Part shown: one piece after another, positions 30,548 through 31,976 of the stretch
Layout of the letters: each line of letters opens with the position of its first letter
Numbering within the stretch: position 1 is the stretch's first letter
Origin: an uncultured Gammaproteobacteria bacterium
Lineage (GTDB): Bacteria > Patescibacteriota > Microgenomatia > Levybacterales > GWA1-39-11
Assembly (NCBI GenBank): GCA_964448725.1
Contig: CAYVAJ010000003.1
Location: 17,867-81,866 of the forward strand
Direction: 5' to 3'
Length of the DNA: 64,000 nt
Position numbers and translations under genes: made by a program
Notes under the pieces: model-generated
Database searches by the model: none
The model's input: the letters and a program-made list of their open reading frames with translations, nothing else
Told to the model about the DNA's origin: nothing

Positions 30548-30672
30548 ACTCCCTCTTTTACTCCTAATATGTCAGAGAGAATTCACTCAAGAGAATACGA
30601 ATTCAGTAATTATTCTGAAATGAGCGAATTGTTGCTGAATTAACTAGAAGTGAACTCCCAACAGAAATAGCT

Positions 30673-31332
30673 TTGGGATACCATGGTGCAAGTCTTGAAA
30701 CTCTTGATCACTTGATAAAATTTGGCAGACTTCCAGGGCGCAAGGAAAGTAATAATAATAAAAATCTCCCTCAACAAGGTGATCTATATTTTATGCCACC
30801 TGATGTAGAAGTTAGTGATCGTTATTCCAAATTTGCTTATGTAAAGGAACAAGTAGAGAAAAGATATAAAGGTATTCCTAAACATTTATGGGAAGTTTCA
30901 GATTATGCAGAGACAAATGCTTTCGAAGATTATTTAGCAATAAAATTAGGACTTGAGGTAAGGTCATTTAAGACCATGGAAATAGTTGATTATATAACGT
31001 TAGAATATTCAAGCGACAATATGCCAACTGAACCTTCTGAAATGGAGATTTTTCGTGAAATCAATAATATTATAAATAATCTTTCGCTAACTGACAACGA
31101 ATTAGTTGAATTACTAAATGAAGCTAAAAGAAGAAAAGGAGTTATATTTTCTTTTAGTAAGGAAATACAAAACGATTTTCAAGTATCTAAAGGTGATGAT
31201 GGTCAAGATCTCAGAATTCATACAGGAACAGGTCTTCCTATCTCATACATTAATGGAATACTCCCACTGGGAAGCATGGAAGAAGAATTTCTAGAAGACT
31301 TAAAACGAAAATATCACTTAAATAAAGCTTAA
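30673..31332 (+). CDS. hypothetical protein (219 aa) inserted between rpsJ and rplC
   Basis: TTG-initiated ORF, no SD, no recognised domain; AT-rich relative to flanking r-protein genes. Confidence 0.35.
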   Translation: MGYHGASLETLDHLIKFGRLPGRKESNNNKNLPQQGDLYFMPPDVEVSDRYSKFAYVKEQVEKRYKGIPKHLWEVSDYAETNAFEDYLAIKLGLEVRSFKTMEIVDYITLEYSSDNMPTEPSEMEIFREINNIINNLSLTDNELVELLNEAKRRKGVIFSFSKEIQNDFQVSKGDDGQDLRIHTGTGLPISYINGILPLGSMEEEFLEDLKRKYHLNKA

Positions 31333-31478
31333 AACTTGTATTTTACAAAGCTATAGTGTAATACTTGTTCTCTCTTAATCCCTCAAAAATTTTTATTAGG
31401 TTGGGAAAAGCTGGGGTAGTACATACCCCAGCGCGAGTATCCTATACAAGAACTAACAACACGGCTTCGTTTGCCAGG

Positions 31479-31691
31479 CTATTTCTTGCTTGGATGTTTT
31501 TTTTCATTTCTGATGGATAAGAGCTCTGCACCGACTTCTGCTGGTACAAACCCCATCCACCGATACATGCGGACACTCATGAGCATTCGTTGTACACGAG
31601 GTTCACTTCGTGTCTCTCCGCATGCACATTCCTGAATAAGGAATTCTACAGTTTCTTTTTTGGTTATCCATTTATGTCTGTGGAACCTCAC
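31479..31691 (-). CDS. hypothetical small Cys/His-containing protein (70 aa), antisense orientation within the S10 operon
   Basis: HRHKW...ECACGETR motif suggests possible metal binding; weak evidence. Confidence 0.2.
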   Translation of the reverse strand: MRFHRHKWITKKETVEFLIQECACGETRSEPRVQRMLMSVRMYRWMGFVPAEVGAELLSIRNEKKHPSKK

Positions 31692-31908
31692 TGCAATCTC
31701 CTTTTTAAGGATCGTTAAATCGAGTGGACTTCACCCGAATTATGGCAATTATACCAAACATTTATTTTTCTTACCGCTCTCTTGCAATCTCAGCTCAAAT
31801 CTAATATAATTACTCGTATTGTCATGAGTTTAAATCAGGCTGATTTGACTAATTGTTATGCGAGTTGTATTTCCTGACACTGGACTCTCCATTTGGAGAC
31901 TAGTAGGA

Positions 31909-31936
31909 AGCGACTCAGGGAGTCGCTTTTTTTTTG
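31909..31936 (+). terminator. terminator/attenuator-like hairpin in the rplC leader
   Basis: AGCGACTC-AGG-GAGTCGCT followed by T9, 40 nt upstream of the rplC ATG. Confidence 0.6.
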
Positions 31937-31976
31937 GATAAATTCTCTATGACATATATAGGTAACTGTACTAACT

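Follow-up and report, generated by a model that had tools for sequence, protein, structure and literature searches.

What separates rpsJ from rplC in the Levybacteria, a canonical operon that was broken once or a boundary with a function of its own? The question is raised by a window of 64,000 nt (the whole stretch analysed here: contig CAYVAJ010000003.1, positions 17,867 to 81,866), whose closest named relatives by L3 protein are Levybacteria (Levyibacteriota). In this window the genes for ribosomal proteins S10 (rpsJ; Pfam E value 7.6e-33) and L3 (rplC; 1.4e-15) leave between them a gap of 1429 nt (30548-31976), which confirms the 1.4-kb interval reported by the original prediction. The tuf gene stands immediately 5′ of rpsJ here (spacing of ~70 nt) and in the relatives, whereas rplC is followed by rplD, rplW, rplB, rpsS and onwards. 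The open reading frames (ORFs) described earlier in the gap, one of 219 residues (TTG start, no Shine-Dalgarno sequence, AT-rich) and an antisense one of 70 residues, are indeed present, as is a strong hairpin followed by T9 shortly before rplC (Table 1). However, the ~290 nt that had been taken as non-coding (285 nt) hold two promoter-like sites and a conserved upstream open reading frame (uORF) of 17 codons. We consider it likely, judging from sequence, that the conserved part of this region is a previously undescribed attenuator-type leader of the rplC operon, probably throttling the main ribosomal-protein operon.

The rplC neighbourhoods of relatives with an L3 identity of 60-80% were compared first (loci L082/L083, L084, L085, L086, L093/L094, L096-L098, L099, L100, L101, L102 and L103), and to these we added, from an L3 scan of a genome collection, the Blackburnbacteria locus L003, the Roizmanbacteria locus L039 and 76 genomes from outside the Candidate Phyla Radiation (CPR). 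The scan was dominated by Actinobacteria and Chloroflexi, with three CPR loci only, and was used as a background for gap length. Among the 76 non-CPR genomes (Actinobacteria, Chloroflexi and others) the distance between rpsJ and rplC is 9-117 nt, and the gaps of the Microgenomates (window and 11 loci) measure 172, 295, 440, 715, 744, 848, 874, 1429 (window), 1789, 1922 and ~2490 nt. The idea of an interrupted junction is not supported, since at least 172 nt always lie between the two genes in this clade and rplC has a predicted promoter and a leader of its own even in L039 and L101, where the gap holds the leader only and no cargo. In the other loci the cargo is diverse. L082 carries an orphan of 173 aa, and L084, L086 and L093 carry antisense orphans; L099 has a toxin-antitoxin-type pair (DUF433 and DUF5615) with three orphans, L100 a Germane-domain gene with one orphan, and L003 HicA/HicB with a 295-aa orphan. 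When these ORFs were compared with one another and with the two of the window (ORF219 and ORF70), no relatedness was found, and this synteny comparison bears out the accessory nature that had been proposed for the genes of the gap. The interval is a standing operon boundary and an insertion hotspot. In the Levybacteria and other Microgenomates, rpsJ would be expressed with tuf, and rplC would head the remaining S10/spc cluster, which would be served by a separate promoter of the sigma-70 type, followed by a ~120-nt leader and a Rho-independent terminator; the stretch from the rpsJ stop to the rplC promoter would tolerate insertions, so that each lineage would collect different selfish or accessory genes.

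What recurs in front of rplC is a compact unit of predicted promoter, leader RNA and terminator. The promoter of the window has 10 of 12 matches in a promoter scan, and its hexamers lie ~95 nt before the terminator stem. The arrangement TTGCAx-17-TATAAT recurs in 12 of the 13 sequences (L039 is the exception), its distance to the terminator being constant, and from it we infer promoter activity. An element of the form TTTCTTACC..C.C abuts the -35 hexamer, recurs at this position in L082-L103 and is kept even in lineages whose leaders have diverged (L099, L100, L103); it could act as an UP-like element or bind a factor, and its copy in the window overlaps the -35 region of the putative antisense promoter of ORF70.

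Downstream of the promoter, the leaders of the window and six distinct close relatives align with a mean identity of 79%, and two blocks, CATGAGTTTAAATCAGG and CCTGACACTG.ACTCTCC, are invariant in this close group. A covariance model built from these seven sequences (L094 repeats L093) has one match in the whole window, at 31816-31933 (135 bits), and scores of 104-135 bits among the seven, always as a single copy 5′ of rplC; partial matches occur at the ends of contigs that break at the leader. Canonical pairs fill 91.5% of the pair cells in the model alignment, against 36-54% when the partners are slid, with one-sided U-A/U-G changes at two pairs of P1 and an invariant P2, the helix that ends 5 nt before the terminator stem. 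In the distant lineages (L099/L100, L103, L101, L003 and L039) the leader is too diverged for sequence alignment. They retain the promoter (except L039), a spacing of ~110 nt and a terminator with different stem sequences, so that the same promoter-leader-terminator layout is present in six more divergent lineages; L099, L100 and L103 each have a predicted hairpin ahead of the terminator, of differing sequence, which is unclear in L101, L003 and L039. As a conserved and structured 5′ untranslated region (UTR) directly 5′ of a ribosomal-protein operon, the element fits the class of r-leaders. The covariance-model scan proposed for the gap yielded noise only: Rfam 15 gave no meaningful match to it, either at the gathering threshold over the whole window or at E<=10 over 30500-32050. 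A tRNA/tmRNA scan of the gap returned nothing, and no description of the unit was found in the literature searched. A metagenome search with the pattern AAATCAGGNTGATTTN{16,40}CCTGACAC was discarded, as its six loci were all chance matches in unrelated contexts; the pattern was also too strict, since L102 carries GATATAGC.

The terminator is the best defined part of the unit. Its hairpin, AGGAAGCGACTC-AGG-GAGTCGCTTTTT followed by the T-run, is the strongest terminator-like site (12 pairs) between positions 28000 and 36000, an interval where the scan gives 8 such sites against 4.2 +/- 2.4 in shuffles. Each of the 12 relatives examined has an equivalent hairpin at this place, and among the closest seven sequences 5 of the 12 pairs are changed on both sides; these same-site equivalents and two-sided changes place the hairpin beyond chance. 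It precedes the rplC ATG by 20-110 nt across the sequences (41 nt in the window), and in L099 and L100 the spacer of ~20 nt is too short for a separate promoter, so rplC must there be transcribed through the hairpin. An order of promoter, terminator and gene is that of a transcription attenuator; a mere insulator would stand 5′ of the promoter. The likeness to the Escherichia coli S10 leader that had been suggested for this hairpin thus holds for its attenuator-like setting, with a conserved promoter upstream and rplC downstream, but not as homology, given that the element lies 3′ of rpsJ and has no Rfam match.

Termination at this site would be conditional, and a candidate antiterminator can be drawn in the leader. 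Its 5′ strand pairs with the 5′ arm of the terminator in a predicted duplex of -14.4 kcal/mol in the window (z-score of -2.4 against shuffles), compared with -14.9 for the terminator itself. When the leaders are folded without the 3′ arm of the terminator, five of the seven close sequences give this long stem as the structure of minimum free energy, where CGAG...UUUCC pairs with GGAAG...CUCG and encloses P2. Against shuffled upstream sequence, the z-score is about -2.3 in the window, L082 and L093, and about -1.5 in L103, L101 and L039. We regard the antiterminator as plausible, not proven. RNAalifold proposes in addition an invariant 12-bp helix between the two conserved blocks (31826-31839 with 31873-31887, GAGUUUAAAUCAGG with CCUGACACUGAACUC; -11.3 to -11.7 kcal/mol), which would compete with the antiterminator for CCUG. 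In such a scheme the nascent leader would first form the antiterminator stem, making read-through the default, and termination would be imposed whenever the strand at 31861-31876 is withheld. This could happen if the invariant 5′ blocks were bound by a ribosomal protein of the operon, for which E. coli would suggest L4, or if a ribosome translated the uORF up to its stop codon inside the antiterminator strand.

The uORF is common to all lineages: in 13 of 13 leaders an ATG located 1-16 nt after the -10 hexamer opens a frame of 11-17 codons. Such a frame is carried by ~9% of shuffled leaders, and the product over six lineages is 3e-7, a figure to be read with the facts that the criteria were set once the data had been seen and that the lineages share ancestry. 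The peptides of the window and its close relatives begin with MSLNQ(A/V)D and have 17 codons in six of the seven; elsewhere they read MSKVTDDFSIV (L099), MSKVIEVLEAS (L100), MSKQLIALLVT (L101), MVNFLMLKLTTSSR (L103) and MPNVQVETTPS (L003), with 12 codons in L039. No codon run is common to the peptides of the 13 leaders, and sequence conservation does not extend beyond MSLNQ. In the close group the UGA stop falls inside the antiterminator strand (UUUCCUGA), so a terminating ribosome would mask this strand.

As to the effector, a ribosomal protein is possible, and is the candidate that we place first; a ribosome acting through the uORF is a more tentative choice, and the same low standing is given to something else or to a constitutive partial terminator. 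The full version of the ribosome-sensing idea is rather doubtful. It would have free ribosomes reading the near-leaderless uORF and, at its stop, covering the antiterminator, so that the terminator forms and the operon is cut, with scarce or stalled ribosomes resulting in read-through. If true, it would be a direct homeostatic feedback from translational capacity to the transcription of ribosomal proteins (L3, L4, L23, L2 and onwards), in a phylum with minimal regulatory repertoires.

Several observations weigh against an attenuator of this kind. There are only ~13 sequences, and a homologous leader can be aligned in just 7-8 of them. P1, P2 and the long-range helix are near-invariant within the close group and therefore show little covariation, while the use of the promoter and the efficiency of termination are predicted from sequence. 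The antiterminator signal is about zero in L084, L085, L099, L100 and L003 (z-scores range from -2.4 to +0.9 among lineages), and native pairs of antiterminator and terminator barely beat swapped ones (-10.7 vs -9.6 kcal/mol), a marginal difference for which we do not claim covariation of this helix. The uORF has no Shine-Dalgarno sequence and a predicted 5′ UTR of about 0-9 nt (~6-9 nt), its substitutions have no third-position bias, and in L003 its ATG is 1 nt after the -10 hexamer, so that it would not be transcribed from that promoter. The missing Shine-Dalgarno sequence is not decisive, since many ribosomal-protein genes of the window lack one as well. Nor is there a significant resemblance to E. 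coli ribosomal RNA (rRNA): Smith-Waterman comparisons of seven leaders (window, L082, L086, L099, L103, L101 and L003) with 16S and 23S rRNA were no better than those with shuffles. A supposed likeness of GAGUUUAAAUCAGGCUGA to the 5′ end of 16S rRNA (GAGUUUGAUCAUGGCUCAG) was rejected, having scored below the shuffle mean. One exact 11-mer, UGACACUGAAC, is identical to positions 2086-2096 of E. coli 23S rRNA, at the base of the L1-stalk region; its chance expectation is ~0.07, not significant on its own. This 11-mer is an invariant block of L082 and most relatives, at 31873-31883 in the window, where one G is substituted.

The strongest competing explanation, in our view an improbable one, is that promoter, 120-nt RNA and terminator make up an independent small gene, for either a trans-acting small RNA or a 17-aa peptide, with rplC being transcribed from elsewhere. 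The unit does have a complete promoter and an efficient-looking terminator, the uORF is retained in all lineages, and the blocks CATGAGTTTAAATCAGG and CCTGACACTG.ACTCTCC stay invariant although L3 is only 67-80% identical to that of the window, which exceeds the typical conservation of a 5′ UTR. However, it always keeps to within 20-110 nt of rplC, whatever stands upstream, the spacer has no further promoter-like site that is conserved, and L099 and L100 have no room for one between the U-run and the ATG. Attenuators, moreover, routinely release short RNAs of this sort, and our leader would itself be released as a ~120-nt RNA upon termination, so the two readings are not exclusive.

A slightly less probable explanation gives the meaning to the cargo: the 1.4 kb would be a single horizontally acquired island of cooperating parts, for instance a toxin (ORF219) with the antidote ORF70. 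In its favour is ORF219, which is assigned an ADP-ribosyltransferase (ART) fold, as in DarT and the Rhs/Tre toxins, and has a low GC content (0.29-0.33 vs 0.39 for rpsJ and rplC). A word-index search recovered ORF219 itself only, and an exhaustive HMMER search gave 217 relatives at E<=1e-3, mostly of 210-260 aa, the named ones being hypothetical proteins of Levybacteria, Parcubacteria and Patescibacteria. Two further points would suit this reading, namely that the domain also occurs inside proteins of 1047 and 5935 aa, and that true toxin-antitoxin pairs sit at the same site in other genomes. Comparison with curated families (Pfam, NCBIfam, PADLOC DarT, Tpt1 etc.) gave nothing above noise, and no member was found in viral contigs. 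Residues H4, F40 (in GDLYF) and E203, which may correspond to the catalytic H-Y-E (or R-S-E) triad of the NAD pocket, reach a conservation of 90% or more across the sequences of 50 family members. The closest known proteins are Tpt1/KptA, DarT and others with an ART fold, from which ORF219 differs in belonging to none of their sequence families, in a helical insertion of ~100 residues and in a family found only in CPR bacteria; it has no adjacent macrodomain partner or other known antidote.

The gene is, moreover, probably damaged, a point that does not favour the island. The homologues of ORF219 begin ~35 residues earlier, and the family profile extends its match, for 9.7 bits more, over 17 codons 5′ of the TTG as far as the in-frame stop at 30616-30618. 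From the ATG at 30569, 22 nt after rpsJ, to the TTG there are 104 nt, not a multiple of three. Sequence thus points to a probable frameshift near 30619-30640. The gene could be a pseudogene, or the assembly could be wrong here; a Logan contig obtained independently, from SRR7082976, is identical.

The presumed partner, ORF70, has no homologue in an index of 5.8 billion proteins (from which ORF70 itself is absent), in viral contigs, in the relatives or in phage records, and no match in Pfam, NCBIfam, PADLOC or PHROG. The homology searches proposed for the two ORFs therefore had unequal outcomes, with many relatives and no curated family for ORF219, and nothing for ORF70. A single-sequence AlphaFold2 model of ORF70 is poor (mean predicted local distance difference test of 57.6). 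By its signals the region looks like a complete small transcription unit, with a good ribosome-binding site (AAGGAG-N6-GTG), an extended -10 ~50 nt upstream and a hairpin that is likely its terminator. The predicted transcript (31400-31742, minus strand) folds at -118.4 kcal/mol, with a z-score of -7.07 against 100 dinucleotide shuffles, and the region is the second most extreme in a fold scan of the whole window (300-nt windows; background -0.51 +/- 1.59). These 343 nt may possibly be a structured RNA of a new type and not an mRNA; they, and the RNA that the rplC leader would release, bear on the unannotated small RNA that had been suggested for the gap. Against a common island, ORF219 and ORF70 are convergent and not co-transcribed, the 217 relatives of one and none of the other indicate that they do not travel together, and the gap showed no integrase, repeats or att-like duplications.

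Least probable, and by a reasonable judgement very unlikely, is a plain terminator that insulates rplC from the transcription of tuf-rpsJ and the cargo, TTGCAA-17-TATAAT being no working promoter, for although shielding an essential operon from variable and possibly foreign genes would be useful and ORF219 has no convincing plus-strand terminator, this would leave rplC promoterless behind spacers of 20-41 nt in several genomes including the window, would not account for the hexamers, which 12 of 13 sequences keep exactly 17 nt apart together with a conserved element upstream, and meets the unit also where there is no cargo (L039, L101).

Table 1. Features of the rpsJ-rplC region, in coordinates of the window
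Feature	Position	Strand	Description
rplC-operon promoter (predicted)	31766-31810	+	Upstream element TTTTCTTACCGCTCTC 31766-31781; -35 TTGCAA 31782-31787; 17-nt spacer; -10 TATAAT 31805-31810
rplC leader RNA, ~120 nt	31816-31935	+	P1 31827-31850; P2 31886-31899; terminator 31905-31931; U-run
uORF, 17 codons	31824-31877	+	MSLNQADLTNCYASCIS-stop; starts 14 nt after the -10 hexamer; no Shine-Dalgarno sequence
Putative antiterminator 5′ strand	31861-31876	+	CGAGUUGUAUUUCCUG; pairs with terminator 5′ arm AGGAAGCGACUCAGG (31905-31919); overlaps last uORF codons and stop
Intrinsic terminator/attenuator	31905-31935	+	12-bp stem, 3-nt loop, T9; -14.9 kcal/mol
Spacer before rplC ATG	31936-31976	+	AT-rich, non-conserved, no Shine-Dalgarno sequence
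rplC (L3)	31977-32852	+	Heads the long ribosomal-protein cluster; Pfam PF00297 and gene order of relatives
rpsJ (ribosomal protein S10)	30239-30547	+	Last conserved gene of the tuf-rpsJ unit; Pfam PF00338
24-codon fragment	30569-30643	+	MSERIHSREYEFSNYSEMSELLLN-stop; other frame; probable original 5′ end of the ORF219 gene
ORF219	30673-31332	+	TTG start, no Shine-Dalgarno sequence; accessory gene of an uncharacterised CPR-specific family, ART-like fold with inserted helical domain
Antisense unit (putative)	31400-31756	-	Extended -10 TGGTATAAT (31748-31756), 5′ UTR hairpin, ORF70, terminator hairpin
Hairpin GCTGGGGTA-GTACA-TACCCCAGC	31410-31432	-	Between convergent ORF219 and ORF70; followed by UUUU on the minus strand; likely terminator of the ORF70 unit
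ORF70	31479-31691	-	Orphan, 70 codons, GTG start; Shine-Dalgarno AAGGAG 31698-31703

Some further observations concern the junction and its flanking genes. Short-read contigs end in or beside the rplC leader: the Logan contig L001 stops at the equivalent of position 31824, the Logan contigs L096-L098 begin 29-100 nt before rplC, and the NCBI contig L002 begins at rplC itself. This suggests that a conserved unit common to co-occurring Levybacteria breaks the assemblies at the rpsJ/rplC junction. In the JGI contig L086 (2122-2349 onwards) rplC is followed by rpsN, rpsH and rplF, and the genes from rplD to rplE are absent, owing to either a true deletion or rearrangement or a chimeric assembly. 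L101 has a 29-nt unit (TTGGTCGAAGACCAGTGAACAAAGTGATA) repeated ~2.5 times in tandem between terminator and rplC (2413-2500). The proteins L3 and L4 of the window have end regions that are also present in the relatives, an acidic Thr/Glu/Lys-rich C-terminal tail of ~85 residues in L3 (32600-32852) and a Lys-rich N-terminal extension of ~45 residues in L4 (32933-33080); the length of L3 in relatives is 266-301 aa.

Elsewhere in the window, a motif, AATAAATAGTCAATAAA, is repeated on the plus strand at 32913-32929, 35683-35699, 38331-38347, 39619-39635 and 41596-41612, plus weaker copies, ~3-5 nt upstream of the starts of rplD, rpsC, two other ribosomal-protein genes and secY. It has 11 matches with up to three mismatches against 1.4 expected, the genes that bear it are without a Shine-Dalgarno sequence, and it may be a non-Shine-Dalgarno signal for translation initiation or processing. 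Positions 61334-61679 (plus strand) contain a divergent class A bacterial RNase P RNA, which the standard scan missed because its 57.5 bits are below the Rfam gathering score of 100 (E 1e-16 in a local scan); the RNA shows the motifs GGAGGAAAGTCC and ACAGAATCTGGCTTA and is followed by a terminator at ~61690-61710. The fold scan also flagged the surroundings of this gene, and the most stable predicted fold of the window lies just 5′ of it, in the gene-free stretch 60860-61230 (z-scores of -8.7 and -7.6 on the two strands for 60901-61200), with a 20-nt inverted repeat, GACCCCGATGAACATCGGGG (60909-60928 / 61180-61199), and two internal palindromes.

To our knowledge, essentially nothing is known of how ribosome synthesis is regulated in the CPR, and the ribosomal-protein leaders of E. 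coli are limited to Gammaproteobacteria. In this context, the rplC unit would be a concrete cis-regulatory element of ~150 nt, comprising promoter, uORF leader and attenuator, in front of the largest ribosomal-protein operon of the Levybacteria, with architectural counterparts in Blackburnbacteria and Roizmanbacteria. The rpsJ/rplC junction belongs to the syntenic ribosomal-protein block used for CPR phylogenomics and binning, and in this clade it attracts insertions repeatedly and is a place where assemblies break. The cargo gene ORF219, in turn, draws attention to an ADP-ribosyltransferase-fold family that is CPR-wide and uncharacterised.

Among known systems, the leader-peptide attenuators of trp, his and pheST, and the antibiotic-sensing ones with a uORF, share with the rplC leader the succession of promoter, short ORF, candidate alternative helices and intrinsic terminator, as well as a uORF stop inside a strand predicted to pair with the 5′ arm of the terminator. 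In the numbering of the trp type, the RNAalifold helix would be 1:2, the antiterminator 2:3 and the terminator 3:4, the last of which is well supported. They differ in that the rplC leader has neither a regulatory codon run nor a Shine-Dalgarno sequence. The examples that we know of precede genes for amino-acid biosynthesis, aminoacyl-tRNA synthetases or resistance, not a main ribosomal-protein operon.

Two other leaders come closer in the genes that they serve. The infC-rpmI-rplT leader of Bacillus subtilis is subject to L20-dependent transcription attenuation, according to the mention made of it in PMC3616713, and it belongs to a ribosomal-protein operon controlled by a conditional intrinsic terminator in its leader, as is proposed here, although the operon and the RNA are others and the effector, L20, is known. 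The L4 r-leader candidate of the Archaeoglobi (Eckert & Weinberg 2020, PMC7247131) is a candidate structured leader that directly precedes rplC-rplD-rplW-rplB, from a lineage in which rpsJ does not come first either. It is archaeal and unrelated in sequence, was unmatched at E<=10, and implies no terminator platform.

The nearest parallel remains the S10 leader of E. coli, an L4-interacting RNA that precedes rpsJ and is restricted to Gammaproteobacteria (Fu et al., PMC3616713). The work of Lindahl, Zengel and co-workers is reviewed there, and according to that article L4 acts together with NusA at the HD-HE hairpins. Both leaders stand 5′ of the string L3-L4-L23-L2..., have an intrinsic terminator a short way 5′ of the first gene, and carry a hairpin directly 5′ of this terminator (HD-HE there, P2-terminator here). 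The E. coli leader, however, is located 5′ of rpsJ, with the HG hairpin overlapping the S10 start, whereas the rplC leader lies 3′ of rpsJ and ends 41 nt before rplC. There is no detectable homology between the two, as judged by the lack of an Rfam match, in a database where the S10 leader may not be included. Finally, two parts of the rplC leader, its conserved uORF and its candidate antiterminator, play no role in the mechanism of L4 and NusA.

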